The translations under genes were made by a program, and so were the position numbers. Below, in pieces: positions 10,213-41,509 of a DNA stretch of 64,000 nt. Location of the stretch: the NCBI GenBank assembly GCA_017983435.1, contig JAGOBM010000004.1, positions 3,818 to 67,817 of the forward strand, given 5' to 3'. This DNA comes from Candidatus Moraniibacteriota bacterium (GTDB lineage: Bacteria; Patescibacteriota; Minisyncoccia; Moranbacterales; UBA1568). The notes beneath the pieces were generated by a model. The model made no database searches and was not told the origin of the DNA. It saw nothing but the letters and a program-made list of their open reading frames with translations. Positions within the stretch are counted from its first letter, which is position 1, and each line of letters opens with the position of its first letter.

Positions 10213-10862
10213 TAGCTCACCATGTTTGTGATGTCTTTAAAAATAGTTTCTTTGTCGAGCGAGGCGTCGATGGTGATCATATCCCACTCTGAAAGTTTCT
10301 GATTGAAAAGCGACTGCTTGGTACGGAGGTAGTCAATGCCTTGCTCCGGGGCGCGGTCTCGGGACATGATGGCCTCGGGAGCTAGGTCAAAATAAAATGC
10401 AGCGTCTGGGTCGGGTAACAAATAACAGCTAACCGTTAACAATAGTCCTTGTTTCTTGTTCACTGCCGACGGCTGATTGTTTTTTGTTGACTGTTGATTG
10501 TTGATTGATCGGAGGTATTCGATATTTATGATCGAGTCGTAGAAGTACCGATCGGAAATCAGATAGTCGCAGCCTTCCTTCCGTAAGCGTGATAAGAGCA
10601 GGCGGAAGCGGAGGATATCGATGAGCAGGAATTTCTCGCGGAGCAGGATGGAGATATACGAGGCCTGGGTGACGGCCTTCTCCTGTCCGGGCTCGAATGT
10701 TTTTTGTCCCTTGAGGCAACGAGCCAGCTTGTTGGCCAGCGAGAAATCGACGGCATGAAAATACGAGACGGTGTGGCCCTCTCGGAGAAGGTGTTCTTTC
10801 AAGAGATCGAGCTGAGTAGATTTGCCAGAGCCATCGACGCCTGAGAGGGTGATGAAACGCAT
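10212..10862 (-). CDS. tmk: thymidylate (dTMP) kinase with an A/T-rich low-complexity insertion
   Basis: P-loop ITLSGVDGSGKSTQ at the N-terminus and dTMP kinase-like LID/DRY region (LISDRYFYDS). Internal insertion NNQQSTKNNQPSAVNKKQ is encoded by a CAATCAA-type heptamer tract at 10440-10510. Confidence 0.7.
   Translation of the reverse strand: MRFITLSGVDGSGKSTQLDLLKEHLLREGHTVSYFHAVDFSLANKLARCLKGQKTFEPGQEKAVTQASYISILLREKFLLIDILRFRLLLSRLRKEGCDYLISDRYFYDSIINIEYLRSINNQQSTKNNQPSAVNKKQGLLLTVSCYLLPDPDAAFYFDLAPEAIMSRDRAPEQGIDYLRTKQSLFNQKLSEWDMITIDASLDKETIFKDITNMVS
10441..10510. repeat. A/T-rich heptamer-like tract (TTGATTG/CAATCAA)n inside tmk
   Basis: gttgactgttgattgttgattgat on the plus strand. 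Locally AT-rich in a GC-rich gene, in frame. Confidence 0.55.
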
Positions 10863-10920
10863 ATGATAAGCCTTTTTCCTGATTTCTATGCTATTCTAGC
10901 ATACAAGATGTCCCTCTGGT

Positions 10921-12393
10921 ATGGATATGGAACGGACGTGGAAATATCTCCTGTATGCCTTTGTCGGTCTGCTGCCGCTGCAGACGGTGTATTTGCTGCG
11001 CGAAGTCTTCATCGGGGGAGAGAAATGGCAGTATGGGACCATTGCTGTCTATGTGTCAGATAGCATATTGTTTTCAGTTCTTATTCTCTTTTTTATTTCT
11101 GGTGATTACGCCGGGAAGATTTTTGATTTTAGATATTGGATTTTCGATCTAAAATCCAGAATCAAGAATCTAAAATCAGAATCAGTGCTGCCTATAGCAC
11201 TGATTCTCTGGGCCGGCCTGTCTATCCTCTGGGCGCCGGATCAGATGCTTGCGGGATATTTCGTCATGAAGCTCGCGCTCGCGGTCGGAGTGTTTTTGAT
11301 GGTGAGATCTTTGGATGAGAAAGAATCCAGGATAGCGGTTCTTCTCGTGGTTATCGGTGCGGTCTTGGAGGGCGCTCTCGGAGTATGGCAATTCCTCGCC
11401 CAATCGACATTCGCATCGACACTGCTTGGTATGAGCGCGCATGAGGCGGGCCAGGCCGGGACGTCGGTCTTGAAGCTCGGGGATGGCCGCTGGCTCCGGG
11501 CATACGGCACACTGCCGCATCCCAATATGCTCGGAGGATTCCTGGCGGCGGCGCTCGTGCTCGGAATCGGATACCTCACCCGTTTTGGAAAAGACTCTTT
11601 GTGTACCGTGCTGATGAGCCGTGCAGAGCTTCGGGAGAGCGGTGCTTCTCTCTGGGATCGATTCATAGATACGGTCCGGATGTCTGGTATAACTCTAGCC
11701 GGAGCGATGCTGCTACTCGGTCTCCTCCTGACGTTTTCCCGATCGGCATGGCTGGGTGCCGCTCTCGGCATCACTGTTCTCGCTACCTATTTCTTTTTCC
11801 AATCAAAATCAGCAAAATCAGAAAGTAACATAATTCCACGGCCGTCAGATTATGTAACATTTTATAAAACAATTTTTGTGCTGGTAGCGGTAGGGATAGC
11901 GTTTGTCGGGGTGTTACGCACACAGATTTTCCCACGATTTGATAGTGCGGTCATCGCCGCTGAAGGATCGGTCTCAGAGCGCGTGCAGTCGCTTTGGGAT
12001 GCTGAGCGCGTCATCGGCGAGGGGAATATACTGATCGGGACCGGAGTCGGCAACTTCACGGCTGAGATGATGCGATTGCAGCCTGATCGGCCCGTGTGGA
12101 GCATCCAGCCGGCGCACAATGTCTTCGTGCTCATCTTCGCTGAGCTCGGCCTGGTCGGATTTGTGTTGTTTATCGGATTCCTTGCGCCTGTCATTCTGAG
12201 CGCAGTGAAGAATCCCGAGATTCCTCGACAGGCTCGGAATGACAAAGGGTATCGTGTGATGAGTATTGCTGCTCTTGGGGCGCTCCTCCCGAGCCTTCTC
12301 CTCGATCATTGGCTCTGGACCTCACATTTCGGTCTACTGCTTCTCTCTATGCTCCTCGGTATCGCCGCGCGGAAATACGGAAATCTTGCTTAA
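10921..12393 (+). CDS. O-antigen ligase / Wzy_C family membrane protein
   Basis: 490 aa polytopic protein. The LLLTFSRSAWLGAALG motif and a large periplasmic loop are typical of WaaL/O-antigen polymerase family. Carries two A-rich heptamer insertions. Confidence 0.65.
   Translation: MDMERTWKYLLYAFVGLLPLQTVYLLREVFIGGEKWQYGTIAVYVSDSILFSVLILFFISGDYAGKIFDFRYWIFDLKSRIKNLKSESVLPIALILWAGLSILWAPDQMLAGYFVMKLALAVGVFLMVRSLDEKESRIAVLLVVIGAVLEGALGVWQFLAQSTFASTLLGMSAHEAGQAGTSVLKLGDGRWLRAYGTLPHPNMLGGFLAAALVLGIGYLTRFGKDSLCTVLMSRAELRESGASLWDRFIDTVRMSGITLAGAMLLLGLLLTFSRSAWLGAALGITVLATYFFFQSKSAKSESNIIPRPSDYVTFYKTIFVLVAVGIAFVGVLRTQIFPRFDSAVIAAEGSVSERVQSLWDAERVIGEGNILIGTGVGNFTAEMMRLQPDRPVWSIQPAHNVFVLIFAELGLVGFVLFIGFLAPVILSAVKNPEIPRQARNDKGYRVMSIAALGALLPSLLLDHWLWTSHFGLLLLSMLLGIAARKYGNLA
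11120..11186. repeat. A-rich heptamer repeat tract (GATTTTR / AAAATCY units, both orientations) in frame within O-antigen ligase gene
   Basis: tttgattttagatattggattttcgatctaaaatccagaatcaagaatctaaaatcagaatcag. Includes palindrome ggattttcgatctaaaatcc. Encodes IFDLKSRIKNLKSES. Confidence 0.6.
11800..11826. repeat. A-rich repeat (CAAAATCAG x2) in frame within O-antigen ligase gene
   Basis: ccaatcaaaatcagcaaaatcagaaag encodes FQSKSAKSES. Confidence 0.5.
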
Positions 12394-12581
12394 AATCAGC
12401 GAAGTTGTTAGACTCTTTTAGAAGAATATTTTTATATGTTGCACAACCATTCCATAAAAACCTGGTCGGGCTTTGTCGGTAACCACGCAATTCTTTCCTG
12501 ATTGAGCGGTGGTTTTTCTGTGTTTGATTCGATACGCCACCTCTCTCAGGCGGTTTTTTGTTTTTTCAAAGGAGAAGAGAA

Positions 12582-13406
12582 ATGTCTGCTTCGGAATCCG
12601 GCATCAAGATTTCCAATCGTGATTTTTCCATGGTTCTTTCACATCAATATCCGGCAAAAGTGATTATATCCGTCCCGCATGATGGGTCAATCAGGGATGA
12701 CTTTTCAGGAATATTCCGGAGGTCATCTGGCGTGACTGTGCGTGATATGCACGTGTGGTTAATCGTCAACGATATCATCCAACGATGTTTGCGGTTCGGA
12801 ACAAGAGTCGATGCGACCCGTTTTCTCATGGCACGTACCTACGTGGATGTGAATCGTGAAAGGCTAGGAGAACCGAATCTTTGTCCTGATACTCTCGGGC
12901 AGGCGGCTTTCGATGACCCCGATCTCGAAACGGTATACGGGCACTATCACAGTGAGCTTGTTCGGCTTTTAGACGCATCAGTCCGAGAATATGGAGCAGA
13001 GAATGTCTTATTTCTCGATATGCACGGTTTCAGCAAGCAGCCACTGTCTGTCCATGGTCAGGTCGCTCAGAACAGAATTGATGAGAATCCCATATATGCA
13101 TCGTATGATCTGATACTCGGAACCGCCAATCGAACGACGATCAACCACGGAGAAATAGATCGTCAATTTGAGGATTTTATGACTCGGAAAAGTTATGCGG
13201 TATTTTTGCCCAAAGAAAAACCGATATCTCCAGAAGGTGATCCCTATAGCGCCGGACATATTACCCGCCTTTATGCCAAAAAATACAGGATAAACGCGAT
13301 CCAAGTAGAGATTGACGCCCGTTTTCGAAGAAGTGAACAAGCCAGGGAAGCGGGTGAAAAATTAGCTTGGGATATGGCGGAGTTTTTGTCCGAACACTAC
13401 GCATAA
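12582..13406 (+). CDS. N-formylglutamate amidohydrolase (FGase) family protein
   Basis: Motifs VIISVPHDG, ARTYVDVNRE and LFLDMHGF match the FGase family metal-binding signature. SD aaggag lies 8 nt upstream of ATG 12582. Track start 12558 is probably too long. Confidence 0.6.
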   Translation: MSASESGIKISNRDFSMVLSHQYPAKVIISVPHDGSIRDDFSGIFRRSSGVTVRDMHVWLIVNDIIQRCLRFGTRVDATRFLMARTYVDVNRERLGEPNLCPDTLGQAAFDDPDLETVYGHYHSELVRLLDASVREYGAENVLFLDMHGFSKQPLSVHGQVAQNRIDENPIYASYDLILGTANRTTINHGEIDRQFEDFMTRKSYAVFLPKEKPISPEGDPYSAGHITRLYAKKYRINAIQVEIDARFRRSEQAREAGEKLAWDMAEFLSEHYA

Positions 13407-13494
13407 CATGCATCAAAAAACCGCTTCGGTCTATTATGACGAAGCGGTTTTGATTTTTTGCTGACTGTTAATTGTTTTCTGTTTGCTGATTTCC

Positions 13495-14997
13495 CTAGTA
13501 CATGATCACCGAGATCGGCTGCATGCGGGCGACGGGTTTTACGATCTGATTCTCGATGACGCTTTCGATGACATCGTCAGAGCGTTTGTAGTGGGAGGAA
13601 TCCTGTTCGATGACTTTGGATGATCGGCCGTTGTAGAGACGGACGCCTTTCGCTTCCAATTTCTTATCGAGCTCGGCTTTGTTCTCTGGGATGACGTCTT
13701 CGGTCTTCTGGGCGGATTTGCCGGCGCCGTGATTGCAGGAGAAGAAGCTCGACTCATTGCCGTCCTGACCCACGCAGAGGAAGGCCTCGGTCGACATCGA
13801 GGTTGGGATGAAGGCCGGCTCACCGGTCTCCTTGAAGAGCGGGTGATCGCTCATGCGGGACGGACCGTAGGCGCGGCTGGTGCCGTTGCGGTGCACCCAG
13901 ATCTTCTTCCCGTAGTGTTCTTCCTGGGAGACGAGGATATGCGGCATATCGTAAAGGAGCTCCATGCCGATATCGCGGCCGAGGACGCGCTTAGCGGTCT
14001 GGGCGACATTGTGCGCGATGACAGCGCGGTTGGCATGGGCGAAGTTCGAGCAGGCGTTGCGAGCGGCCATGTAGAGCTTCCCATCCTCGCCCTCGCCATC
14101 AAACTCGATAAGCGGCTCCTGCTTGCCAAAATCAGACTGGCGGATCTTTTCGGCGATGGCCTTGACCGTCGCTTTGTATGGCGTGCGCCAGAAGAAGCGT
14201 CCGATATTCATGAGGATGGCGGTCGAGAGATGCTCGCGCTTCTTGGCGGTATACATGTACATCGTGTACTGGCCGAGTATGCCGGAGCCGCAGTGGACCA
14301 TGAAGAGGTAGTCGCCGTTCTTGACCCCGAGCTTCTCGGCTGTGGCCGCGTCTTCGATGCCAGTGACCTTCATAAGATCGAGGAAATGATTGCCGGCAGC
14401 ACCGAGTATGCCGGAGCGGAACTGGGCGAAGAAGAGGAAGAGCGGAGGGATGACATCGGTGATCTCTTTCGAGGTCATCTCGCGATCGAAGAAATTACCG
14501 CGGTCAAGGGAGTTCTCAACCTCATGCTTGGTCTTGATACCCAAGTGGTCGATGAGCGGGCGGATACCTCGGCGGCAGATATCGACGATGACGCGGAAAG
14601 GGAGATAGGTGCCGACATAGGCTTTGGTCGGGACTTCCGGGACGAGTGCTTCGAAGAGCTGCTTGAGCTCTTCCTCGGTGATGTTGCTCTCATTGAGATT
14701 GGTGCGGACGAGGCGCATACCGCAGGCCGGGTCGCTGTCATTGAGCTGCGAGAGGATAGCATGCTCGGACGTGACGGTGGTGCCGGTCGCGTTCTTGCGG
14801 CCCGGTTTGCTGTGTACGTCGGCCATCGCCGCGATATGATGGAATATCTGGCTATTGCTCGCGACGCTCTCGAGCTGGGCCAGGGTCGACTCATTGGGCA
14901 TGAGCTGGTCCTGGACATGAAAAACGACCGGGACTTGCATCTTTTCGGTCTGCATCTCGCTCCGGTAGTCGGATATTTTTTTGAGAGGATAGGTCAT
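13495..14997 (-). CDS. rtcB: RtcB-family RNA 3'-phosphate ligase
   Basis: 500 aa. Motifs ADVHSKPG, MVHCGSG, NHGAGK are spaced as in RtcB. Large antisense ORF 13729-15012 rejected. Confidence 0.55.
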   Translation of the reverse strand: MTYPLKKISDYRSEMQTEKMQVPVVFHVQDQLMPNESTLAQLESVASNSQIFHHIAAMADVHSKPGRKNATGTTVTSEHAILSQLNDSDPACGMRLVRTNLNESNITEEELKQLFEALVPEVPTKAYVGTYLPFRVIVDICRRGIRPLIDHLGIKTKHEVENSLDRGNFFDREMTSKEITDVIPPLFLFFAQFRSGILGAAGNHFLDLMKVTGIEDAATAEKLGVKNGDYLFMVHCGSGILGQYTMYMYTAKKREHLSTAILMNIGRFFWRTPYKATVKAIAEKIRQSDFGKQEPLIEFDGEGEDGKLYMAARNACSNFAHANRAVIAHNVAQTAKRVLGRDIGMELLYDMPHILVSQEEHYGKKIWVHRNGTSRAYGPSRMSDHPLFKETGEPAFIPTSMSTEAFLCVGQDGNESSFFSCNHGAGKSAQKTEDVIPENKAELDKKLEAKGVRLYNGRSSKVIEQDSSHYKRSDDVIESVIENQIVKPVARMQPISVIMY

Positions 14998-15003
14998 ATT
15001 TTT

Positions 15004-16119
15004 TTAGAGTGATTCATAAATAGTTTCGTACTGCTTGACGGTATCTGCCAGGTCAAAGGAGCGTTTGACAAAGGCGCGCGCCTGATGGCCTAGGGATGTC
15101 CGGGTCTCGGGGTGTTCCTGGAGAAATGTGATTGTTTCGGTCAACGCCGTTTTTGAACCTCGTGGTATGGTAACGCATACATCGCTTCCTGAGAACTCTT
15201 GAAAGATCGGTAGGTCGGAGAGGATGACCGGCTTGCCGCAGGCGTAGGCTTCGATGATGACGAGCGGGACATCGAACTTGCCGCGCATATCACCGACTGG
15301 GAAGGCCATAATATCGGCGAGATTGTAGAGCTTCGGCATGTCGGCGTAGGTGTCGGTGAAGCGGATACGGTCGAGGATACCGGCGGCTGCGAAGCGTTCG
15401 GTGATTTCGACTTTTTTCAGCCGGTCGTCCTCGTGTTTCACGCGGCAGGCGAAGACGAATTTCAGAGCGGAATCCGGGTGGGTATGATAGTACTCGATGA
15501 GCCACTCGGCGAGCATGTCGGTCGCTCCGAGGCGGACGTATTCGCCCGGGTACATGACGATGAAATCATCCGGGGTCAGATTGAAAAAAGCGAGAGCCTC
15601 GGCGTCTTTGGGCTGCGGTTGGTAGAGCGAAAGATCGATTCCCGGGTAGATGCGGGTGACATTGTCGAAGCCGACGCGCTCGAGGATATGTTTGGAATGG
15701 TCCGAGTAGACGATGATGCGATCAGCGAAGAGGAGCTGTCTCCATTGTTTGGCACCGTAGAGATCCTCGCGCAGGGTAGCGATGGTCTGTATGGTCTTGC
15801 CGTGCGTCGGGCGGCTGAAAAAGTTGATGAGGGAGGTATTCTTGCGAGTCGGCGTGAAGAGATAGTGCGTGATATCGAACTTGTTGCGGAGGCCGCGGAG
15901 AGCGGACAGGAGACGGAGCTTCTCGGAAAAATCCAGCTCGTTCTTGGTGTAGCAGGGGATCTGGGTCACGTTGGCTGGTAGATCAGGCAACCAAGTCGGC
16001 GTCGTCAGGATGCTGACGTGATGGCTCTCCATCGACTTGGCGAGGAAATAGGCGAAGTTCTTGGAGGCCTCATCCCAGGGCGGGACGAGCGGGCGGGTCG
16101 CAAGGAGAATCTTTTTCAT
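15004..16119 (-). CDS. glycosyltransferase family 4 (GT-B fold)
   Basis: C-terminal GT4 motif region (GDMRGKFDVPLVIIEAYACGKPVILSDLP). Conserved part begins at MKKILLATRPLVPPWDEASKNF (Met83 of track ORF 15004-16365). The upstream extension overlaps the divergent gene at 16307. Confidence 0.65.
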   Translation of the reverse strand: MKKILLATRPLVPPWDEASKNFAYFLAKSMESHHVSILTTPTWLPDLPANVTQIPCYTKNELDFSEKLRLLSALRGLRNKFDITHYLFTPTRKNTSLINFFSRPTHGKTIQTIATLREDLYGAKQWRQLLFADRIIVYSDHSKHILERVGFDNVTRIYPGIDLSLYQPQPKDAEALAFFNLTPDDFIVMYPGEYVRLGATDMLAEWLIEYYHTHPDSALKFVFACRVKHEDDRLKKVEITERFAAAGILDRIRFTDTYADMPKLYNLADIMAFPVGDMRGKFDVPLVIIEAYACGKPVILSDLPIFQEFSGSDVCVTIPRGSKTALTETITFLQEHPETRTSLGHQARAFVKRSFDLADTVKQYETIYESL

Positions 16120-16306
16120 AGGCGATGGGAGAGCGTATTGGTGAAGAGATACGTCTGTATTGTACCGCATTTTCAGCCGATGAGAGAAATCCGAGCCTGG
16201 ATGCTTGTATGAGCCGTCAGTCTTGATTTTTTCATGGAAATGTGACAGATTGCTGGTGAGTTCTTTGGTATCTTTCTGAGTACTTTTTTTTTCGAAAGGA
16301 ATTATC

Positions 16307-16858
16307 ATGCCATCTTTGATCGCATTATCCCAGATGCAATGGTCGGTTCTTGGTATCAGTCTCATCCTATTTTTCTTTCTGTTCCAGCGGTTGAGAGTCC
16401 GGACGGCTGTCGCCCAGCGGCAGCACGATGGTTGGCATGCATTGCCAGAGTCCAGCGGTATAACGAGCTATCGGGCCAGTGGCTGCGAAGATCACTTTAT
16501 CGCTGATCTGACGGATCATTTTCCGGGGAGGTTTTCGGATGAGGATCGGCAGTGGATGCGTCTGTTCCTCGAGGGACTTCCTGGGGACATGACCATATTC
16601 TTGCGGTTGGCACCGGTGCGTATCCATTCTGAGTCTCGTGATGCGGAACCGATGCGTACGGATTCTGCTTTGCCTCCGCTTCAGGATTTCTGGATACAAT
16701 CGCTCTCAGTGAAGGGGGCGATGGCGTGCTATGAATCGGTATTCACGATTCCTCCAGTGCATCAGCCCGATAGCCAGCGGCTGGTGTTCGCTCGTCCGGA
16801 AGAAGACGGAAGAGACGATACCATCCTGGTATTCGTGCCCAAATATGTGATGCGATAG
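16307..16858 (+). CDS. hypothetical membrane-anchored protein
   Basis: 183-aa ORF with an N-terminal TM helix, followed by a strong terminator. Confidence 0.45.
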   Translation: MPSLIALSQMQWSVLGISLILFFFLFQRLRVRTAVAQRQHDGWHALPESSGITSYRASGCEDHFIADLTDHFPGRFSDEDRQWMRLFLEGLPGDMTIFLRLAPVRIHSESRDAEPMRTDSALPPLQDFWIQSLSVKGAMACYESVFTIPPVHQPDSQRLVFARPEEDGRDDTILVFVPKYVMR

Positions 16859-16878
16859 CATGCAACGCCAAAGCAAAA

Positions 16879-21349: not shown

Positions 21350-21652
21350 TCAGAGAGCTGCTGCTTCAGACATTGTACCAGAAGAAGGCTGATCTGTGGT
21401 CGGAGCGGACTCTTGCTTCCGGATGAGGAGTTTCGGGTCGATGTCCGTGCATTTCCAATCGCAATTCTGTTTGACTCCTTCGAGGCCGGTGCGGATGAGG
21501 TCCTGCCGGCACTGCGCGAGCTCGGCCTCGCAATCGGCTTTGCGCGAATCGAAGTAGTGCCAGTTGACATCGTAACCGACGTACTTCATGACGAAATACG
21601 CGACAGCCGCGATATGGATAAGCCAGAGGATGTGCTTGAGCAGAGAGAACAT
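21350..21652 (-). CDS. small single-pass membrane protein, hypothetical
   Basis: 100 aa with an N-terminal TM helix. Cotranscribed position between GT2 and UGD. Confidence 0.4.
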   Translation of the reverse strand: MFSLLKHILWLIHIAAVAYFVMKYVGYDVNWHYFDSRKADCEAELAQCRQDLIRTGLEGVKQNCDWKCTDIDPKLLIRKQESAPTTDQPSSGTMSEAAAL

Positions 21653-21755
21653 GTATTCAATAAACAGTTAACAAAAAACAAACAACGTATCTGCATTATG
21701 CGAGTGATACTGAAGAAGTTCTTTGTTAACTGTTATATGTTGACTGGATCGTGAG

Positions 21756-23054: not shown

Positions 23055-23280
23055 TTAGGATAACGCCCCGTATTATACGGAAGAGCTCCCTTTTGGGCAA
23101 TATTTTCCATAATTCTGGAAGATTGACAAAAGGATAGGGAGGGTAGATGGTTTGCCGAGCTACAAAAGCAGTTCTTCTCCTTACTGTTGCCTCGGAAGTC
23201 CTGGGGCTAGGATAAGAACTCTTTTGCGGATCAGTAAACCGTGATACTTGTTGTTTTTCAATCGGATGGAGTAGTATGGA

Positions 23281-23988: not shown

Positions 23989-25203
23989 ATGAAAATAGGC
24001 ATCAACGCATCGTTTCTTCGGAAGCCTGGGACCGGTATCGGACAGGTCACGGCTAACTTTTTGGAAAAGTTGGCCGAATATGGAATGCAGAATATCGAAT
24101 ATCGGAAAGAATCCGAAAAATCTACATTCAATATTTCACATTCCACATTCATCCTGTATACCCAGGAGCCGACCGATATCGCGCTGCCGGAAAATTTTGA
24201 GGTGAAATCGTTCCTGCCGCGCTGGTGGAGACGGGATGACGTGCCGCGGCAGCTCCTGTGGGAGCGCGAGCTCGCCAGTCGAGCCACTGAAGACGGCTGT
24301 GATGTTTTTGTATCGCTCTACCAATCCGCAACGATCTTTCCAAAATCCAAAATCCAAAATCCAGAATCGTCACTTCGGCATGTTATGGTGGTGCACGATA
24401 TCATCCCGAAGCTCTTTCCGGAGTATCTCGGGTCGCTTTCCCGACGCTGGCACTGGCGCGGCATCGAGCGGGGTATACGGAGAGCGGATCATATCATCGC
24501 CGTATCGCAGTCTACAGAGGAGGATATAGAGAAGCATCTCAGTGTTGTGCCGGAGCGCATCTCAGTCGCGCACCCCGGACTCTCGCCGATTTTTGCCACT
24601 CCGGCTTCGGATGAGCAGGTGAATGAGACGCTCGCCCGCTATGGTCTCGAGCGCGGCTATATCTATCATGGCGGAGGGCTCGAGATCCGCAAGAATACTC
24701 AGGCAGTACTCGAGGCCTACGCGCTCCTGCGGGGCGACCCGACGGTCGCTCATATGCCGCCGATCGTCATTTCCGGACAGATACACCCCAAAACCAATCC
24801 ACTCGCGACCGATGTCGTCGGTTTGATCGAATCGCTCAGCCTCAGCCACGCGGTCTATCTGCTCGGCCGTGTCCCGGAGGCGGATCTGCCGGCGCTCTAT
24901 CGTGGCGCTTCGCTCTTCATCTACCCGTCGTTCTATGAGGGATTCGGATTGCCTCCGGTCGAAGCGTTTTCACAGTCGACCCCGGTGATCGCCTCGCGCG
25001 CTTCATCGCTGCCGGAAATCTGCGGCGACGCGGCACTGTTCGTCGATCCCGGAGAGCTGGATGATATCGCTGCGGCGCTGCGGCGGCTGCTCAATGACGC
25101 GGAGCTCCGAGCCGAGCTCGGCGAGCGGGGCTACCAGCGGTCGCAGGATTTCTCCTACGAGCGTTTCGTCGAGACGATAATCAAGCGATGCCTCTCTCTA
25201 TGA
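23989..25203 (+). CDS. glycosyltransferase family 4
   Basis: C-terminal [31 protein letters not shown]. Contains in-frame (CCAAAAT)n tract. Confidence 0.7.
24340..24369. repeat. (CCAAAAT)~4 heptanucleotide microsatellite in frame within GT4 gene
   Basis: ccaaaatccaaaatccaaaatccagaatcg encodes [13 protein letters not shown]-rich in a GC-rich gene. Confidence 0.65.
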
Positions 25204-33760: not shown

Positions 33761-33764
33761 TGAT

Positions 33765-34535
33765 TTGAAGTTTTTGTCGTCACGACATATTCTTAGAAAC
33801 TGGTATACTTATTGCATGAAAGAAACATTTTCTACAAAACTTCTTAAGAAGAGTCAAAGAGCACTCTTTATTGTTACGGGCATTACTGCTGTGGTAGGTA
33901 TTGTTTCGTTTTCTTATTCACTTTTTAATTTTGGTGATCTTAAAATCCCGAATGTTACAGCTGCTTTTGCTACTCTTTCACTTTTCTCATTATTTCTTGC
34001 TATTGGGCTTAATATTTTTTCTTACCTTGATCGATATGAAGAAAAGCTATTTCAGAATATTGAAAACAGCAAAAGAGGCATTGAGGGTGAAAGGCTAGCA
34101 AAAGAGCTAATATCCAAAACAGTTGGGACGAGCCATGGAGCATTCTTCAATAAAGATCTTCCTACGGGAGGTGACATAGATTGTCTTATCCTAGGCAAGA
34201 AAGGTCTGATTCTTATAGAAATCAAGAATTTCTCAAAACAAATAAGGTTGCCGTTGTTCTGGACCAAAGGCTTCGATGACCCTCGAAATGAAGCTAAGAG
34301 GCACGCCACGAGTCTTCTGGAGTACTTTGTTGAAAATGGTTATCGTAAACCGCTTAAGATTCGTAAAGCGGTTCTCTATATCAATAAAGAGGTAGTTTAC
34401 TGGGGTAAGCAGGAAGTTTTCAATATCAGGGGATTGGATCGATTCGCTCCATATTTCTTCAGCCTTCCTCTAGATAGTGCTATTACAGAACAGGATATAG
34501 CTGAGATTTCTTCGTTTATTGAAAAGTTGAAATAA
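33765..34535 (+). CDS. NERD (nuclease-related domain) protein with N-terminal TM anchor
   Basis: GGDIDCLILGKKGLILIEIKNFSK...LPLFWTKG matches the NERD signature. Region is AT-rich (~35% GC) versus ~59% in the flanks. Possible start at 33816. Confidence 0.55.
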   Translation: MKFLSSRHILRNWYTYCMKETFSTKLLKKSQRALFIVTGITAVVGIVSFSYSLFNFGDLKIPNVTAAFATLSLFSLFLAIGLNIFSYLDRYEEKLFQNIENSKRGIEGERLAKELISKTVGTSHGAFFNKDLPTGGDIDCLILGKKGLILIEIKNFSKQIRLPLFWTKGFDDPRNEAKRHATSLLEYFVENGYRKPLKIRKAVLYINKEVVYWGKQEVFNIRGLDRFAPYFFSLPLDSAITEQDIAEISSFIEKLK

Positions 34536-34539
34536 AGGT

Positions 34540-35202
34540 ATGTTTGATAAAGAATCTCTTTTCTCTGGGTTGCTGGCATTTTATTTTTTTTGGTTTATTT
34601 TTATTGGGCCCTTGGTCTTTTGGTATCTTTTTCGCAGGAAGCTTTTTTTCTATGCGTATTTCGTGGCGTTTATTTGGTGGTGTTATCTTTGGAGAATAGG
34701 TATTCCGTTGATACTTCTTAGTTTTTTGGGCGACAATATCTTTACCGATGTCATCATGTGGCTCTCCAGTTTTTTCACTAGCCTGTCAGTCCTGCTGGTT
34801 TTCATTCTGCTTATAATGGCTGTGAACTTCCTTTTGCAGGGAAAGATGCTGCAGATCGTAGGCATTCTTTTATTGCTTCCGGTGCTTTGGCTGTCTTCTA
34901 TGGAATCAAAATTTCTTTTTTACCCTCTTATAGATACCGCTCATTCGGAAAAATTTACCCTTAAAAAATTTAAAAGTATAAATCCTGGGATGACAAGAAG
35001 CGAAGTGGAGTACCTGATTGGCAAGCCTCATCCGAATGCTGGCGGATACTTTGCTGGTATGAATGGCTGTGAATCTCAAACAGGGGATAACGGATCGCTC
35101 GCTCAAAGCTTTGGACTGGACTTCGCCTGGCTCGACTCTGCAGTCTGTTATGATGAAAACGATAGAGTGACTGAAATCAAGATGGGGTATGTACCTGATT
35201 GA
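34540..35202 (+). CDS. polytopic membrane protein with C-terminal BamE/SmpA-OmlA-like domain
   Basis: 5-6 TM helices then KFKSINPGMTRSEVEYLIGKPHP (SmpA_OmlA-like). AT-rich like the preceding gene, 4-bp spacing (operon). Confidence 0.45.
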   Translation: MFDKESLFSGLLAFYFFWFIFIGPLVFWYLFRRKLFFYAYFVAFIWWCYLWRIGIPLILLSFLGDNIFTDVIMWLSSFFTSLSVLLVFILLIMAVNFLLQGKMLQIVGILLLLPVLWLSSMESKFLFYPLIDTAHSEKFTLKKFKSINPGMTRSEVEYLIGKPHPNAGGYFAGMNGCESQTGDNGSLAQSFGLDFAWLDSAVCYDENDRVTEIKMGYVPD

Positions 35203-35244
35203 AATTGAGAGTTATCAAGCGGTTCTCGTATACAACAAAAACCG

Positions 35245-35790
35245 ATGAATACATATATCATACTCATACGCGGGATCAATGTCGGCGGGAAGAACAAAAT
35301 ACCGATGGCAGGCCTGAGGCAATGCCTGGAGGGTCTCGGGTTCACCGATGTGGCGACCTATATCGCGAGCGGCAATGCTATGCTCCGCTCCGACCGCTCA
35401 GCCGATGAGGTAGCAGGCATGATCGAAGCGGCTCTGCCGAAGAGCTTCCAGCTCGATAGCGAGCTCGTCAGAGTTCTCGTACTCTCTCGAAAGGAGCTCC
35501 AGTCTGTCATCGACCGCAAGCCAGAGGGATTCGGCGAGCAGCCGGAGAAGTATCACAGCGATGTGATCTTTCTCATGGGTATCGATGCGGACCAGGCTTT
35601 GGCAGTCTTCCATCCGCGGGAGGGCGTCGATAGGGTATGGCCGGGCGAGGGCGTGATCTACTCGGAGCGTCTGAGCGCCTTGCGTACCAAGAGTCGGCTC
35701 AGTAGGATCGCCGGCACGCCAGAGTACCGATCCATGACCATCCGCAACTGGAATACGACGACTCGGCTGCTCGCTATGCTCGAGCAATAA
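35245..35790 (+). CDS. DUF1697 family protein
   Basis: MNTYIILIRGINVGGKNKIPMAGL is the DUF1697 N-terminal signature. GC-rich again. Confidence 0.6.
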   Translation: MNTYIILIRGINVGGKNKIPMAGLRQCLEGLGFTDVATYIASGNAMLRSDRSADEVAGMIEAALPKSFQLDSELVRVLVLSRKELQSVIDRKPEGFGEQPEKYHSDVIFLMGIDADQALAVFHPREGVDRVWPGEGVIYSERLSALRTKSRLSRIAGTPEYRSMTIRNWNTTTRLLAMLEQ

Positions 35791-35796
35791 TACGAA

Positions 35797-35828
35797 AAAC
35801 CATCCGGTACTTGGATGGTTTTTGTTTT
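35797..35828. terminator. bidirectional intrinsic terminator
   Basis: ACCATCC GGTACTT GGATGGT perfect 7-bp hairpin flanked by A5 and T4GT4. Confidence 0.7.
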
Positions 35829-35832
35829 GATC

Positions 35833-36663
35833 CTATTTCTCAAAAGTGAGGCCGGTTTTTTCGAGGTCGGCGGGGGTGGCGTCGATGACGCGGACCATGA
35901 AGAGATTGAGATCGGAGAGGCGGACACCGGCACGGAAAGCCTCATTGCCGCTCCTGCCGTAGATGATGATCATCGTGGAGCGCGGAAGCTCCTGGGCGCG
36001 GTTCTCGAGATCAGCGAGGGGGATATGGAGGGCTTGGCGGATATGGGAGGAGGCTCGGAATTCCGCATCGGTCCGGACATCGAGGAAGATGGCATCCGGA
36101 TTGCTCTCGAGGAAAGTCTTGATTTCTCCGAGTTTGAGATAGGTAACTTTGGACTGGTCGAGAAATGATCCGGGATTGCCGATCGCTATCGTCGGTCGGC
36201 CGCTTCCGACCCAGCCCTCGAATCCTCCGGCCAGGAAGAGATGCTCACCGCCGGAATGCTTGAGTATCTTGTCGGCTTCCGGGAGCAGTCCGCTCTGCGA
36301 GGCGGCAGAGATGACGATGGTCGTCTTGTCTTCCTCGGGGTCATAGCCTGCGAGAGCCGAAAAATCGATCGGGCGCGATCGGGGCACGTGGAGCTGTTCG
36401 AAATCACCCGCAGGCCGGATATCGATGAAGACGATATTCCGGTCGCGTTCTGAGCGGGACCAGGCATCATGGGCGGTGATGTAGGAGAGATCGGCAGCAT
36501 CGGTACTGTCTGCCTCCTCGGTCGCTGTCGTCGGTGACGCATCGTCGACCTCGCTCCGGAAGAAGCGCTTGCTCGCAAAAAAGATACCGACACAGAGGAT
36601 GCCGATGAGTCCGATGAAGAGCACGGTGCTATCTTGGCGGCGGCGCGAGCGTGAGTCGGCCAT
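35833..36663 (-). CDS. membrane-anchored tandem rhodanese-homology-domain protein, both domains lacking the catalytic Cys
   Basis: Two RHOD-like domains (NIVFIDIRPAGDFEQLHVP ... and AIFLDVRTDAEFRASSHIRQALHIP ...). Active-site loop positions read VISAASQSG and IIYGRSGNEA instead of CxxGxR. Confidence 0.55.
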   Translation of the reverse strand: MADSRSRRRQDSTVLFIGLIGILCVGIFFASKRFFRSEVDDASPTTATEEADSTDAADLSYITAHDAWSRSERDRNIVFIDIRPAGDFEQLHVPRSRPIDFSALAGYDPEEDKTTIVISAASQSGLLPEADKILKHSGGEHLFLAGGFEGWVGSGRPTIAIGNPGSFLDQSKVTYLKLGEIKTFLESNPDAIFLDVRTDAEFRASSHIRQALHIPLADLENRAQELPRSTMIIIYGRSGNEAFRAGVRLSDLNLFMVRVIDATPADLEKTGLTFEK

Positions 36664-36675
36664 AGCGAGGGAAGA

Positions 36676-37689
36676 TTACTGGAGGGAGCTACCGATGAAA
36701 TTCTTGTAGCCGTTGACGAAGGCTTTGATGTCGGTACGCTCCTTGCCTTCGAGCTGGACTTCTTCGAGGATGATGACGCCGGTCGTCGTCTGGACGCCGA
36801 TGGCCTCGCCGATTTCGAAGACTTCTCCGAGAGCATGCTTGATCTGCGGGGATTGCTTGAGATGGGAGACGGTGATGAGTTTCAGCCGGAGCGGCGATTC
36901 CTCATGCTTCCAGTAGGTGAAGATACCGGGCCACGGAGTGAGCGCGCGGTAGCGGTCGTAGATCGTCTGCGAGTCGGCATCCCAGAAGACGCGGCCGTCC
37001 TCACGGTCAATGAGCTGGCAGAGCGTCGCCTGAGCATCATCCTGCTTTTCTGGGGTGATCCGGCGTTCGACGAAATCTGGCAGGATACGGCGGAGCAGCT
37101 CAGAGCCGAGCGCCGCGAGACGGATCTCGAGATCGGGTCGGGTCTCATCGAGTTCGATAGCGGTGCTCTCCTTGGCGATGATGTCTCCAGTGTCCATGCC
37201 GGCATCCATGAGCATGATGGTGACGCCGGTCTCGGTCTCTCCGGAGAGCAGGGTGTTGTGTATCGGTGATGACCCGCGCCACTTGGGCAGGAGCGAAGCG
37301 TGCACGTTGACGCAGCCGAATCCGGGTACGCGAAGCAGGGTCTCCGGCAGGATGCGGCCATAGGCAGCGACGATGATGAGGTCCGGCTTCCAGTCCTTGA
37401 TAGCATCGATAGTCGTCTCATCGATCTTCTCGGGCTGCAGGAGCGGCAGGGTGTGCTCAGTAGCGATTTCCTTGACGCGGCTTGCTGTGAGCTCCTGCTT
37501 GCGGCCGGCCGGCTTGTCGGGCTGGGTGACGACGCCGACGATGTTGTAGTGGTGCTCGAGCAGGTCGGCGAGTATGGTCCCGGCGAACTGCGGGGTCCCC
37601 ATGAAGACGACGCGGACTTTCGGAGTCTCGTGCTCGACGGTGATATTAATCTTCTCTGCCAGGTCCTGATTATTCGACGATGCGTCCAT
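36676..37689 (-). CDS. fmt: methionyl-tRNA formyltransferase
   Basis: VVFMGTPQFAGTILADLL..., NVHASLLPKWRGSSPIHNTLLSGETETGVTIMLMDAGMDTGDII (Fmt SLLP motif). Start taken at Met46 of the track ORF. Overlaps def by 20 nt as is typical. Confidence 0.85.
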   Translation of the reverse strand: MDASSNNQDLAEKINITVEHETPKVRVVFMGTPQFAGTILADLLEHHYNIVGVVTQPDKPAGRKQELTASRVKEIATEHTLPLLQPEKIDETTIDAIKDWKPDLIIVAAYGRILPETLLRVPGFGCVNVHASLLPKWRGSSPIHNTLLSGETETGVTIMLMDAGMDTGDIIAKESTAIELDETRPDLEIRLAALGSELLRRILPDFVERRITPEKQDDAQATLCQLIDREDGRVFWDADSQTIYDRYRALTPWPGIFTYWKHEESPLRLKLITVSHLKQSPQIKHALGEVFEIGEAIGVQTTTGVIILEEVQLEGKERTDIKAFVNGYKNFIGSSLQ

Positions 37690-38161
37690 ATATTTTTCCG
37701 TGTTTAATTTTCTGTTTACGATAGCGGGTGCAGATGAGGATGCCGTCGAGGTGATCGATCTCATGCTGGAGGACGATGGCGAGCAGGCCGTCGGCGCGGA
37801 CACGCTTGGGCAGTCCCTTTTCATTGATATATTTTACCGTAATTTCCTCATGCCGTTCAATCGGGAAGAATTGCCCGGGGAGACTGAGGCAGCCTTCTTC
37901 AAAGAGGATCTTGTCCTGCGAGCGGCGGGTGATCTCGGGGTTGATGTACTTGCCGACGACGCCGTCGACTTCGACGACGCAGATGCGTTCCGAGATGCCG
38001 ATCTGCGGCGCGGCCAGCCCGACTCCTTCGGCGCGGCGCATGATGACGACCATCTCGTCGAGGAGCTCCTTGGTTTCTGTCGGGAATGGCACAACGACCG
38101 GAGCCGCCTTGCGGTTCAGGACTTCTGTTTTTTCGCCAGTAACGATTTCGAAGTGTTTCAT
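37670..38161 (-). CDS. def: peptide deformylase
   Basis: GVGLAAPQIG, EGCLSLPG and QHEIDHLDG motifs. Start at MKHFEIV (Met57 of track ORF). Confidence 0.85.
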   Translation of the reverse strand: MKHFEIVTGEKTEVLNRKAAPVVVPFPTETKELLDEMVVIMRRAEGVGLAAPQIGISERICVVEVDGVVGKYINPEITRRSQDKILFEEGCLSLPGQFFPIERHEEITVKYINEKGLPKRVRADGLLAIVLQHEIDHLDGILICTRYRKQKIKHGKIYGRIVE

Positions 38162-40083
38162 ACGTGAAGGGAAAGAGGGTCGCGATCGACAAACGTGTCT
38201 TTCGGGAGCGACCGGAACCAGTCTTCGAGTTGGTCCGGAAAGGCGTCTCCTTTGACCCGGATCAAGACGCGGGCGATGTGCTGGCCGCGGAAACGGCGCT
38301 CGGGTGCCTGCTGTATGAAAATACGCCATTTTTCGCTTTCTGGCAATGCTTTGACGGCTTTCCCAAGCTTTTCAGCGGCACTGTCAGCCAGTCCTTGGGA
38401 ATCGCGTATCACCTCGACGGCGGCGAGCTCGGCGAAGGGCGGATAGGCCAGAGCGGAACGGTCATCGGTGAGGGTTTGGAGTATTTTGCCATAGGTCTCA
38501 CCGGCGATCTTGCGGAAGAAGGCGCTCTCGGGCTGGAAGGTCTCGAGGATGACGAGCCCCTGGCCTCCGGCGAGGAGCCGCGCTCGGAAGACGCGCTCGA
38601 GGAAGCGCTCATCGGTACGGAAGTCGCTCCAGGTAAGGAAGGTATCCGTATCGACGAAGACGACCAGTGAGATCGACGGATCGGAGAGGTGATTGAGGAG
38701 CGAGGGAACGCCAATCAGGATATCCGCCGTCTCGGTCAGTCCGTGCTCGACGAGAGCGCTCCGCTCAGCCCGGGTGTCGAGCGCCGTCCGATCGATGCGG
38801 GAGATGCGGGCGTAGGTGAAGGCCTTACGGATCTCGCGTTCGACCCGCTCGGTGCCGAATCCGACTTGGCGGAAACTGATATGTCCGCAGCCGGGACAGC
38901 TCGGGAAGAGCGGCGTATGGTACGTGCAGGCCGAGCAGGCGTAGGTGCCGGCTTTCTCAGGGTGCAGAGGCGCCTGGCACTCTGGGCAGCGGAAGATATT
39001 CTTGCAGCCTTCACAGAGCGTGATCTTGGAATAGCCAGACTGGTTGACGATGACGACGATTTTCTCCTGGCGGCCGAGCGCTTGCCCGATGCGGGTGCGG
39101 GCGGTCTCGGAGAGCGGAGAATAGTTCTTGCGGTAGCGCTCGAGCCGGAGATTGGTCGTCTCGATTGGAGCGATCGGCAGCGCGGCGACGAGATCGGTAT
39201 GTGTGAGGTGGCCCGCTGCTTCCGCCTTCATGTCGGCGATGGTGGCGAAGGGCGCGAGCGAGATAAGGTCGGCTCCGGATGACTCGGCAAGGAGTGAGGC
39301 AATGCGTCGGCCATCGTAGCGCGGGCTCATGTCCCATTGCTTGTAGGCGTCATCGATAGGGTCGACCATGATGATGGTACCGAGCGCCGAGAAAGGAGCG
39401 AAGAGCGCCTGGCGCGTGCCGATGATGATGGATCGCGGATCACGGGCGTATTCCCAGGCGGAGAAATACTGCTTGCCGGTTTCCGCACTTGTGAGGAGTC
39501 GATGGTCGATGCCGGAGCGATCAAGCGATGAGGAGAGGAGCTCGGCGCCGATGATTTCCGGCACGATGATGACGATTGAGCGTTTGGATTTCTTGCGGGC
39601 AGCGATGAGGAGAGCGATTGTTCGGTCGCGATCTTGAGGAGCGATACTGAGCGCGTGCCGGCCCGGTACCGAGAGGGGTGAGAGTGATTTTTTCAGCGCG
39701 GCGGGGATACGCGGCTTCGGCGTGATGGCTGTGCGCGGCGTGGGCGGGGAGAGCTTGGTAGCATCGGGGATGAAATGCGCGAGCGTCTTGCCGAGCGAAG
39801 TGAAGTACAGGCGGCTGATGGATTCCGCGAGCGCGAGCTGTCCCGGGGTGATGCAGTGCGGGGTGATGACCGCTGTGACTTCTTTCATCCAGGGGGCTGG
39901 CCGGGTCGGGAGCTCCTGGCAGATCGAGACGATACCGCGGAGCTGCTGCTTGCCAAAGGGGATGCTGACCAGCGATCCGGCTTCGATGGCCTGGCGCGAG
40001 AAATATGTGAAGAACGGCGACCGTTTGAGCGGCAGGATGGTGAGCGGGGCTATTTCGAGTCGGTAGAAGGTCGTGGAAGGCAT
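38158..40083 (-). CDS. priA: primosomal protein N' (PriA) homologue with apparently degenerate helicase ATPase motifs
   Basis: PriA N-terminal 3'-end binding region, VPEI box, C-terminal zinc-binding Cys cluster (CEGCKNIFRCPECQAPL...CSACTYHTPLFPSCPGCGH) and conserved priA-def-fmt order. Walker A position reads APQDRDRT (not GxTGSGKT), motif II DPIDDAYKQ (not DEEHDSSYKQ) and motif VI RLLAGG (not AGRAGR). Confidence 0.7.
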   Translation of the reverse strand: MPSTTFYRLEIAPLTILPLKRSPFFTYFSRQAIEAGSLVSIPFGKQQLRGIVSICQELPTRPAPWMKEVTAVITPHCITPGQLALAESISRLYFTSLGKTLAHFIPDATKLSPPTPRTAITPKPRIPAALKKSLSPLSVPGRHALSIAPQDRDRTIALLIAARKKSKRSIVIIVPEIIGAELLSSSLDRSGIDHRLLTSAETGKQYFSAWEYARDPRSIIIGTRQALFAPFSALGTIIMVDPIDDAYKQWDMSPRYDGRRIASLLAESSGADLISLAPFATIADMKAEAAGHLTHTDLVAALPIAPIETTNLRLERYRKNYSPLSETARTRIGQALGRQEKIVVIVNQSGYSKITLCEGCKNIFRCPECQAPLHPEKAGTYACSACTYHTPLFPSCPGCGHISFRQVGFGTERVEREIRKAFTYARISRIDRTALDTRAERSALVEHGLTETADILIGVPSLLNHLSDPSISLVVFVDTDTFLTWSDFRTDERFLERVFRARLLAGGQGLVILETFQPESAFFRKIAGETYGKILQTLTDDRSALAYPPFAELAAVEVIRDSQGLADSAAEKLGKAVKALPESEKWRIFIQQAPERRFRGQHIARVLIRVKGDAFPDQLEDWFRSLPKDTFVDRDPLSLHV

Positions 40084-40193
40084 AGAGTCATCTCATTGTA
40101 CCAAGTTTCGCGCTGGCTGTATGCGGGACCGGACGTGAAAACTTGTCTTTTTGGCTTTTCCAAGCTACAATTCGGCTATTCATCACTTATTCT

Positions 40194-40742
40194 ATGCTCC
40201 AGCGCAGGCTTTTTATCGGGATACCGCTCTCTTCAGCACTCGCCTCCCGTCTCTCCAAAGAGATGGCGGCGTGGCCGAAGGAGATTTTTCTCAAGACGGA
40301 CAAGGACAATCTCCATGTCACGCTGTTTTTTCTCGGCTTCGTCCGCGAGAATACTGTGCCGGATATCTGCGAGAAGGTCCGGGCGCTCTGCGAGACTATG
40401 GAATCATTCGAGATCGAGTTCTCAGGCATCCGTCTCATGCCGACTCCGGAGGACGCCAAGATGGTCTGGCTCGCCGGAGAGCCGAGCGAGGAGCTCCGCG
40501 ATCTCAAGACCGCTATCGAGCGCGAGCTCTCCTTCGTCGTCTCAGCCGAACCGAAAATCTATCGTCCGCATATCACGCTGTCCCGGATGAAGAAGGCCCG
40601 CTTCCAGGCACTCGATCCGAAGCCGACCATCGAGAAAGATATCCGGTTGGTCGAATCGGTCGACACGGTGGTCGTCTATGAGAGCATCATGGAAGACGGG
40701 AAGCGACGCTACATGCCGATCGAATCGGTCCCGCTCATCTAG
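40194..40742 (+). CDS. thpR: RNA 2',3'-cyclic phosphodiesterase (2H phosphoesterase, LigT/ThpR family)
   Basis: Two H-x-T-x motifs (HVTLFFLG and HITLSR) at canonical spacing. Start at Met18. Confidence 0.7.
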   Translation: MLQRRLFIGIPLSSALASRLSKEMAAWPKEIFLKTDKDNLHVTLFFLGFVRENTVPDICEKVRALCETMESFEIEFSGIRLMPTPEDAKMVWLAGEPSEELRDLKTAIERELSFVVSAEPKIYRPHITLSRMKKARFQALDPKPTIEKDIRLVESVDTVVVYESIMEDGKRRYMPIESVPLI

Positions 40743-40768
40743 TCCTCCGAAGATCGGAGCAGTTTCTT

Positions 40769-41509
40769 TTGCTAACGCGTACTCGCATGCATCTCCTCGG
40801 CATCGATATTGATGCGCTTCGGCGCTCGGAGCTCCTCGCGCGCTGCGAGCGCTGGCTGTCGGAAGCAGGCGGGTTCCATCGGATCGCCACGGTCAATCCA
40901 GAGTTTCTGCTGCTCGCTGATCAGGATGCTTCATTTCGTCAGGCGCTCACGGCAGCGGATCTCCGTATCGCTGACGGCTTCGGTGTCGTGCTCGCCGCTT
41001 GGCTTCGAGGAGTCTCTCTCGAACGTTTCCCAGGAGCGGATATCATGGAAGCATTGCTCCGGATCGCCCATGCGCAAAAAATATCGATCTACCTCGCTAT
41101 CCGCAAAGACGGACTGAGCTCGTATGCGGAAGTCAGAGCTGCGATTCTGAGGCAGTACTCGGATATGAAAGTAGAGGGTGCCGACTTTGAGAGCGGACAA
41201 TCTTTGGATTCTACAATCCAAAATCCAAAATCCAAAATCATTTTCTGCAACTTCGGGGCACCCGAACAGGAAATATTTCTTGAGTCACTCCGAACGCAGC
41301 CGGGCAACATCTGTATCGCTATGGGAGTGGGTGGGGCGCTCGACTATCTCACGGGCCGCATCGCGCGGGCGCCTCGGCTCTGGCGCCGTCTCGGCCTCGA
41401 GTGGCTCTGGCGTCTCATCCAGCAGCCCCGGCGTCTCGGTCGTATCTGGAATGCGACGGCGGTGTTCCTCTGGAGAGTCTTCCGGGAAAAAGAAAAGACG
41501 ACCGCATAA
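40769..41509 (+). CDS. WecB/TagA/CpsF family glycosyltransferase (GT26, N-acetylmannosaminyl-type transferase)
   Basis: LLGIDIDAL...IATVNPEFLLLADQD...LRIADGFGVVLAA...CNFGAPEQEIF...LWRLIQQPRR matches the TagA/WecG family. Contains in-frame (CCAAAAT)n tract. Confidence 0.65.
   Translation: MLTRTRMHLLGIDIDALRRSELLARCERWLSEAGGFHRIATVNPEFLLLADQDASFRQALTAADLRIADGFGVVLAAWLRGVSLERFPGADIMEALLRIAHAQKISIYLAIRKDGLSSYAEVRAAILRQYSDMKVEGADFESGQSLDSTIQNPKSKIIFCNFGAPEQEIFLESLRTQPGNICIAMGVGGALDYLTGRIARAPRLWRRLGLEWLWRLIQQPRRLGRIWNATAVFLWRVFREKEKTTA
41215..41245. repeat. (CCAAAAT)~3 heptanucleotide microsatellite in frame within TagA-like gene
   Basis: caatccaaaatccaaaatccaaaatcatttt encodes TIQNPKSKIIF. Confidence 0.65.

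Follow-up and report, generated by a model that had tools for sequence, protein, structure and literature searches.

Do the seven-nucleotide repeats that lie inside several genes of a Candidatus Moranbacteria genome switch those genes on and off, are they copies of a mobile mini-element, or do they belong to a more ordinary class of repeat DNA? The question arises from a 64 kb stretch of a metagenome-assembled genome (MAG) of the Candidate Phyla Radiation (CPR, Patescibacteria), here called the window, whose lineage is named by best protein matches. The tracts lie in four genes with Pfam assignments Thymidylate_kin (the tmk-like gene), Wzy_C (the ligase), GT4 and WecG/TagA (the TagA-like gene). 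We read them, with a probability of about 0.65, as heptanucleotide simple sequence repeat (SSR) arrays, of the short tandemly repeated repetitive (STRR) or long SSR (LSSR) class, that occupy permissive, surface-exposed, hypervariable loops of otherwise conserved proteins and behave there as fast-evolving filler.

The repeat signal itself stands far above chance. Tandem Repeats Finder (TRF) reports nine period-7 arrays in the window, against a mean of 1.7 (maximum 5) over 60 local dinucleotide shuffles, and its top three scores (47, 50 and 53) exceed the best shuffle score of 38. A lag-autocorrelation scan of the window yields strict segments at lag 7 only and, at a relaxed threshold, eight period-7 segments in 64 kb, six of them intragenic and two intergenic. 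The motif CCAAAATCCAAAAT, allowing up to two mismatches, occurs 11 times where 0.42 matches are expected, a count reached by none of 100 shuffles. GC content falls to 25-38% within the tracts, compared with 54% for the window and 52-59% for the host genes, below the ~60% that a sequence-only reading of this DNA had given for the latter. All five tracts marked in that reading are present at or near where it placed them, and translation of the four open reading frames (ORFs) confirms that they are in-frame.

The description of the tracts as near-identical across genes does not hold. They range from 25 to 96 nt and share nothing beyond a 7-nt unit, and the CCAAAAT/AAAATCC unit is common only to GT4 site B, TagA and ligase site 1 (Table 1). 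The period-7 arrays comprise 3.6-4.9 copies with 69-100% match, and several are degenerate. The tmk tract exists, but its coding-strand unit, AATCAAC, differs from CCAAAAT, and it is longer than first described. The GT4 tract at site B is likewise present, and the two further period-7 arrays of site A had been overlooked, while the second ligase tract (11800-11826) has a period of nine nucleotides, not seven. Rfam and tRNA scans returned no feature overlapping the tracts.

The tracts fall in loops. In the AlphaFold2 (AF2) model of the TagA-like protein (82-sequence alignment; mean predicted local distance difference test score, pLDDT, 92), the tract lies between strands 129-134 and 151-155, and its loop forms the two lowest-pLDDT blocks of the model. 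In the GT4 model (101-sequence alignment; mean pLDDT 94), sites A (residues ~32-54, pLDDT 68 and 61) and B (residues ~117-129, pLDDT 78) are the only blocks below 80, each in a loop between regular secondary-structure elements. Compared with the solved Tmk of Aquifex (2pbr), the tmk insert, which encodes SINNQQSTKNNQPSAVNKKQGLLLTVSCYLL, lengthens the protein by about 20 amino acids at a point that separates the IEYLRSIN helix from the PD motif. The ligase translation contains FDFRYWIFDLKSRIKNLKSES and QSKSAKSESNIIPRPSDY, and the former, the site 1 peptide, is flanked by two hydrophobic (predicted transmembrane) segments. Mapping onto predicted structures, which the sequence-only reading had proposed, assigns the tracts of TagA and GT4 to the loops of lowest confidence, and of its idea of an in-frame mini-insertion tolerated in surface loops the loop location is borne out by the AF2 models; the discrete mobile element is not, as the tracts have no consensus and no fixed ends and their units differ.

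Table 1. Period-7 arrays and associated repeats in the window, in order of position.
Feature	Position	Strand	Gene or location	Repeat composition	TRF period-7 arrays
tmk-like composite period-7 insert	10415..10510	-	gene 10212-10862, Thymidylate_kin	coding strand: ~8 AATCAAC-type units, then ~4 inverted TTGTTAN units	10474-10507
Ligase site 1	11117..11184	+	gene 10921-12393, Wzy_C	(GATTTTN)~4.6 abutting (AAAATCN/AGAATCA)~4.7	11117-11148, 11153-11184
Ligase site 2	11800..11861	+	Wzy_C gene	CAAAATCAG x2 (period 9), then separate palindrome 11822-11861, peptide SNIIPRPSDYVTF	
Intergenic degenerate period-7 array	13457..13494	.	between FGase-like and RtcB genes	CTGTTAA/TTGTTTT type	
Intergenic period-7 hairpin	21652..21734 (about 21655-21740)	-	directly downstream of UDP-glucose dehydrogenase stop codon	AACAGTTAAC-type arms	
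GT4 site A	24075..24150	+	gene 23989-25203	(CGAATAT)~4.3 and (ACATTCC)~3.9	24075-24104, 24124-24150
GT4 site B	24339..24368	+	GT4 gene	(CCAAAAT)x3 plus CCAGAAT	24339-24368
WecG/TagA-like tract	41215..41239	+	gene 40787-41509	(AATCCAA)x3.6; peptide TIQNPKSKI	41215-41239

These loops are hypervariable across Moranbacteria. In the 82 TagA and 101 GT4 orthologues, the TagA loop and three GT4 sites carry dozens of repeat-derived peptides, including KSKI(Q/K)N, SYKLQATSYKL, QLPVTSYQ, IRNTKYD, NWKLEIGN, SRFKIQDS, STVNSQQS and SWQFLSGL. At the DNA level, the TagA loop holds (AAGCTAC)4.7 in L311, (GTATCAA)4.6 followed by AATACGA units in L312, (AGAATCA)4.4 followed by an inverted (AATTCTC)2.9 in L313, and ATACGGG/ATACAAA units in L009. 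Because the final unit in L311-L313 blends into the native codons of the next β-strand (AAGCTCG, K-L-V; AATTCTT, S-I-L; TATACTC, D-I-L), the sequences suggest that the array units of this loop were seeded locally by tandem duplication or slippage. A single unit "flavour" specific to each genome, or a trans-acting template, was also considered and appears unlikely, as contigs with both TagA and GT4 show different units at each site.

Contingency loci of host-adapted pathogens undergo phase variation by slipped-strand mispairing. The tracts resemble such loci in having a unit whose length is not a multiple of three within the ORFs of surface-structure genes, three cell-envelope glycan genes being among the hosts, and the sequence-only reading had proposed that slippage by a single 7-nt unit flips the ligase, GT4 and TagA between ON and OFF frames. 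Gain or loss of one unit in GT4, or gain of one in TagA, would truncate the protein, and the perfect 4.4-4.7-unit arrays of TagA loops elsewhere make slippage physically possible. However, the length of the TagA tract does not change between the window, a 93% identical relative known from six independent assemblies, an 80% relative and all full-length members of two 90% clusters. Its five alleles (IQNPKSKI, IQNPGSQI, IQNPGSKI, IQNPESKI and IQNLKSEI) differ by point substitutions only; in the 93% relative, ACAATCCAAAATCCAGGATCACAAATC stands for ACAATCCAAAATCCAAAATCCAAAATC. Fixed length among relatives is what the reading itself had named as evidence against a switch, and the length differences seen at other tracts are all in-frame (21 nt in tmk; 24, 48 and 27 nt in GT4), the tmk gene of the close relative L216 being shorter by exactly three units.

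No frameshifted allele occurs among the 90% cluster members; the short members, considered as possible frameshift products, are contig-end fragments in the normal frame. In contrast to contingency loci, the tracts are short and several are degenerate, long perfect runs and single-unit length steps between strains are lacking, and similar arrays lie in housekeeping genes: in tmk here, in the glutamyl-tRNA synthetase of L313, and in PriA and SMC genes from other phyla. Proteins identical to those of the window turn up in several MAGs, each under two to three NCBI protein accessions and also in further assemblies. We conclude that the tracts are not supported as ON/OFF frameshift switches and that phase-variable contingency loci are a very improbable explanation, which removes a tempting but wrong annotation, namely "phase-variable glycan genes in a CPR bacterium". 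The same comparisons bear on whether low-complexity DNA was misassembled or misread. The source is a MAG built from short reads, but assemblies made independently, from other samples and with other pipelines, contain identical tracts, each tract is shorter than one read, and orthologous tracts are conserved in relatives; we give an artefact virtually no credence.

Comparison with close relatives shows that the arrays coincide with local breaks in identity. Across 14.3 kb shared with L130, a 95-97% identical relative, the two GT4 heptamer sites are the only intragenic divergent patches, and coding indels of at least 3 nt are confined to these sites (48 nt missing from L130 at site A and 24 nt at site B) and to a 6-nt indel at the GT4 stop. 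In L132, site B is occupied by a different heptamer array; two otherwise near-identical GT4 alleles differ by 27 nt, and both tracts are kept in distant orthologues with 77% and 70% protein identity. Over nt ~31-160 and 271-390 of GT4, the window is 30-62% identical to its closest relative and 89-100% identical to the distant L134, whereas over the remainder of the gene it is 91-100% identical to L130 and ~45-75% identical to L134. The ligase is mosaic in the same sense: in a sliding window it is 92-100% identical to L216 except around site 1, where identity drops to 52-61%; here the window is instead 87-89% identical to L217, compared with ~65-70% elsewhere in the gene. Ligase site 1 is missing from the 69-77% homologues and present in the 62% homologue P0246/L217. 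From these identities we infer that short-patch homologous recombination between lineages produced the mosaic GT4 and ligase genes. A metagenome scan for GT4 orthologous DNA recovered only paralogous GT4 genes, at no more than 41% identity.

Rather than passive filler, the arrays with ~30-60 nt of flank might be the exchangeable core of short "loop cassettes", preferentially transferred between divergent Moranbacteria or copied between loci by a repeat-associated recombination or homing-like process that diversifies loops of cell-envelope glycan enzymes; more generally, a heptamer-specific generator might be common to CPR, Cyanobacteria, Chloroflexota, Acidobacteriota and others. We regard this proposal as rather unlikely.

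A promiscuous mobile mini-element, comparable to Rickettsia palindromic elements (RPEs) or miniature transposable elements with inverted repeats (MITEs), could instead insert pre-formed heptamer arrays or palindromes in-frame and survive only in loops. Such an insert would escape the frameshifted intermediates that stepwise slippage passes through, and it would fit the recurrence of one unit at several loci of a genome, the presence/absence polymorphism among close relatives, and the inverted architecture (GATTTTG)n..(CAAAATC)n that is shared by the ligase and tmk and found again in several other phyla. RPEs provide the precedent for in-frame insertion (PMC10969869). They are partly palindromic repetitive DNA, a character that some but not all of the tracts show, and like the tracts they lie in-frame in unrelated housekeeping genes and are tolerated at permissive positions, as seen here in the AF2 loops of TagA and GT4, the extra insert of Tmk and the ligase segment between hydrophobic segments. 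Also in favour is a 21-nt GC-rich palindrome, CCTGCCTTGCCGGCAGGCAGG, nested within the CCAAAAT array at GT4 site B of the 70% orthologue (L134/L133 10367-10387), which suggests a mini-palindrome that targets heptamer arrays; IPARPAGG- or LPVRQAGG-type peptides nested in the A-rich arrays of homologues P0143, P0180 and P0198 suggest the same at the protein level. The window holds no copies of the L134 palindrome. RPEs, however, are defined elements of ~100-150 bp with a family consensus, whereas the tracts have a 7-nt unit but no wider consensus; they vary in length and show neither defined termini nor a visible target-site duplication. The flanks of filled and empty alleles differ as well, with no clean duplication, a pattern that agrees better with replacement of alleles than with clean insertion. 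At one and the same site, lineages have different units, which run into the native codons alongside, and no transposase-like partner is evident. A mobile element is therefore an unlikely source of the tracts.

To place the repeats in a wider context, we scanned one genome per GTDB species for exact (CCAAAAT)3 and found at least 120 loci, where ~0.3 would be expected by chance according to our estimate. The matches listed come from Cyanobacteria (including Nostoc, Calothrix, Microcoleus and Fischerella), Chloroflexota, Acidobacteriota, Verrucomicrobiota, Planctomycetota, Saccharimonadales, Omnitrophota and others. These arrays have 3-6 copies, often stand beside other heptamer arrays or just upstream of a start codon, and are often paired in inverted orientation, (GATTTTG)n...(CAAAATC)n, as at ligase site 1. 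The 866 kb flanking the listed loci in these other genomes contain 139 other period-7 arrays, compared with 4, 17 and 25 arrays of periods 6, 8 and 9. Among the matches listed, 43 of 124 arrays lie deep inside long ORFs, and the ORFs inspected encode bona fide proteins with in-frame inserts: a nonribosomal peptide synthetase, SMC, PriA, a TonB-dependent receptor and a Ser/Thr kinase. Within L097 (~700-1100), a cyanobacterial PriA-like helicase contains more than 100 residues of in-frame translated heptamer arrays (IQNLQSSTQNLQSST...).

CCAAAAT has no stop codon in any of the six frames, which is true of only 18% of heptamers with equal A+T content. Such openness is necessary for intragenic survival in either orientation, and it is a precondition for intragenic arrays only: as a general property of arrays it was rejected, other period-7 arrays not being enriched for stop-free units (55 versus 75 expected). 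In a viral collection, (CCAAAAT)3 was found at 39 loci against 25 and 29 for two composition-matched heptamers; because this count is little above the controls, we dropped the idea of a specially privileged unit and make no claim that CCAAAAT is mechanistically special.

The recurrence of identical units in distant phyla, with many of the arrays there immediately upstream of start codons, raises the possibility of selected cis-elements acting at the DNA or RNA level, such as sites for a heptamer-binding single-stranded DNA or RNA protein (for example, a cold-shock protein), hairpins for termination or pausing, or signals for DNA uptake or recombination, with the intragenic copies as by-products. 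Binding of heptamer repeats by cold-shock proteins has been discussed (PMC4679880), the arrays coincide with recombinant patches, and the hairpin-forming pairs fold significantly better than shuffles. Ligase site 1, described as palindromic from the outset, is indeed a 60-nt palindrome with 30-nt arms, 80% complementarity and a 0-nt spacer (RNA fold z = -3.4), and the hairpin downstream of the UDP-glucose dehydrogenase gene has 17-nt arms (21663-21679 / 21718-21734) with 94% complementarity (z = -5.2). From its sequence, the latter looks like a terminator derived from a repeat pair. The single arrays of GT4 site B (z = 0.2) and TagA (z = -2.1, a small hairpin only) are, in contrast, unstructured; the inverted arrays of tmk also fold (z = -1.4), and ligase site 2 gives z = -2.0. 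Units are also highly diverse within one genome, arrays are lost in close relatives without visible consequence, and (CCAAAAT)3 is only modestly more frequent than its viral-collection controls. We consider cis-elements quite improbable; the DNA-uptake-sequence idea was set aside for want of one conserved motif present at high density.

Of all long SSRs, those with heptanucleotide units are reportedly the commonest in most prokaryotic genomes, an over-representation (Mrazek et al. 2007, summarised by PMC4679880 and PMC4692102) for which a polymerase-slippage hypothesis has been put forward. Described examples include the STRR sequences known from heterocystous cyanobacteria (Mazel et al. 1990, cited in PMC4692102), the TAACTGA repeats and the GGGAATC/GGGGAYT repeats (PMC4679880, PMC4692102). 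The tracts share with this class a few tandem, head-to-tail 7-nt copies dispersed at many loci, an excess of period 7 over neighbouring periods, and units in common with cyanobacteria, (CCAAAAT)n itself among them. They differ in that six of eight arrays are intragenic and in-frame, in a CPR host, whereas classic accounts stress intergenic sites (cyanobacteria, Xanthomonas). Intergenic location is nevertheless descriptive rather than defining, because about one third of the listed cross-phylum (CCAAAAT)3 arrays lie deep in long ORFs. The TAACTGA direct repeats of Beggiatoaceae, Cyanobacteria and Bacteroidetes (MacGregor 2015, PMC4679880) offer a close parallel: their arrays have 2-6 copies, distant phyla have the unit in common without an evident transfer mechanism, reverse-orientation copies are translatable in ORFs (LSVISYQ), and stop codons dictate array placement. 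In contrast to the arrays described here, TAACTGA repeats lie mainly upstream of start codons and contain stops in one orientation, while CCAAAAT is stop-free and found inside genes. A literature search found no report of such repeats in CPR bacteria, which is an absence of matches and not proof. The observation is thus real and ordinary in kind, an addition to the known heptanucleotide-repeat (STRR/LSSR) class.

How might such arrays arise and turn over within reading frames? If they are heptanucleotide SSR arrays in permissive loops, a 7-nt stretch beside a conserved element would be duplicated in tandem by slipped-strand mispairing, and sometimes an inverted copy would also form, giving a hairpin-capable pair. 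Selection would retain only versions that have no stop on the reading strand and that, in net length, leave the frame intact; because of this filter, the array is presumably translated, extending the loop by a short hydrophilic stretch of low complexity such as KSKIQNP. Turnover of these probably near-neutral arrays would be fast, through point decay, in-frame length steps (e.g. 21 nt), loss of the whole array and substitution of a new unit, and array-bearing segments would also be carried between lineages by short-patch homologous recombination.

Several points weigh against this account. Slippage by a single 7-nt unit passes through frameshifted intermediates, yet perfect 4-5-unit arrays are found in genes, and tmk is presumably essential; births would therefore have to proceed, hypothetically, via multi-unit or compensated events or under some form of sheltering. 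Purely local seeding does not predict one unit at several unrelated loci of one genome, whereas CCAAAAT occurs in three genes here, AGAATCA in both TagA and glutamyl-tRNA synthetase of L313 (in the latter as a (AGAATCAAGAATTG)3.2 array at 11827-11871), and AAAATCC at two ligase sites of L217. Nor does the account explain why recombinant patches and arrays coincide so tightly. Translation of the tracts is presumed from the reading frames, and tract lengths were compared in assemblies, so that minority length variants may exist.

The comparisons document that, in conserved proteins of Moranbacteria, hypervariable loops have been colonised by heptanucleotide repeats, that one loop is filled by different perfect 7-nt arrays in different lineages, and that the array segments and the remainder of the gene differ in ancestry. 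Where metagenomic proteins contain peptides such as KSKIQNP, SYKLQAT, IRNTKYE and TVNSQQS, annotators should take these for translated repeat DNA and not for domains. The loops also offer a tractable comparative system for old questions, namely why 7-nt units are favoured and how arrays arise within reading frames; the birth of in-frame arrays without lethal intermediates, the recurrence of units at several loci and the coincidence of patches with arrays are the points of remaining interest.

The ligase gene contains further palindromes of a different kind. That at 11822-11861 encodes IIPRPSDY, where other ligase homologues, including P0264, have IIPRPWNY; back-translated from the protein rather than read from DNA, IIPRPWNY gives a perfect 24-nt palindrome, ATAATTCCACGGCCGTGGAATTAT. 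Judged by sequence, the 11822-11861 palindrome is probably another small palindromic insert family in this gene. Near the C-terminus (12189-12244), a GC-type palindrome, TGTCATTCTGAGCGCAGTGAAGAATC / GATTCCTCGACAGGCTCGGAATGACA, encodes NPEIPRQARNDK and folds with z = -5.0; peptide variants of the RQARND/ARDDK type occupy the same loop in many ligase homologues and also occur in some TagA and GT4 loops. This palindrome appears to represent a separate family of small in-frame palindromic repeats.

Other differences between the window and its relatives lie outside the host genes. In L001, a 93% relative, the intergenic region between priA and LigT (~9247-9352, equivalent to window ~40132) carries a 106-nt insertion of A-rich and then T-rich heptamer-like arrays (AAAATC... 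/ ...GATTTTG) arranged as an inverted pair, which is not in the window. The same relative has a 185-nt MITE-like insertion (~15356-15540) with ~22-nt terminal inverted repeats (TAGAGCNTATCTCAAAATTCA...), of which the equivalent window position, ~46119, has no copy. L130 has a sigma-70 family gene (8158-9148, 289 aa) between the UDP-glucose dehydrogenase and HD-domain genes that is missing from the window (23132-23268). Finally, two AT-rich gene islands in the window (33765-35202 and 52116-54413), with a third-codon-position GC content (GC3) of 0.27-0.46 versus ~0.7 elsewhere, may be integrated foreign DNA; the second adjoins a tRNA-Gln gene (54581-54653), and a 16-nt perfect inverted copy of the 3' part of this tRNA lies at 54511-54526.

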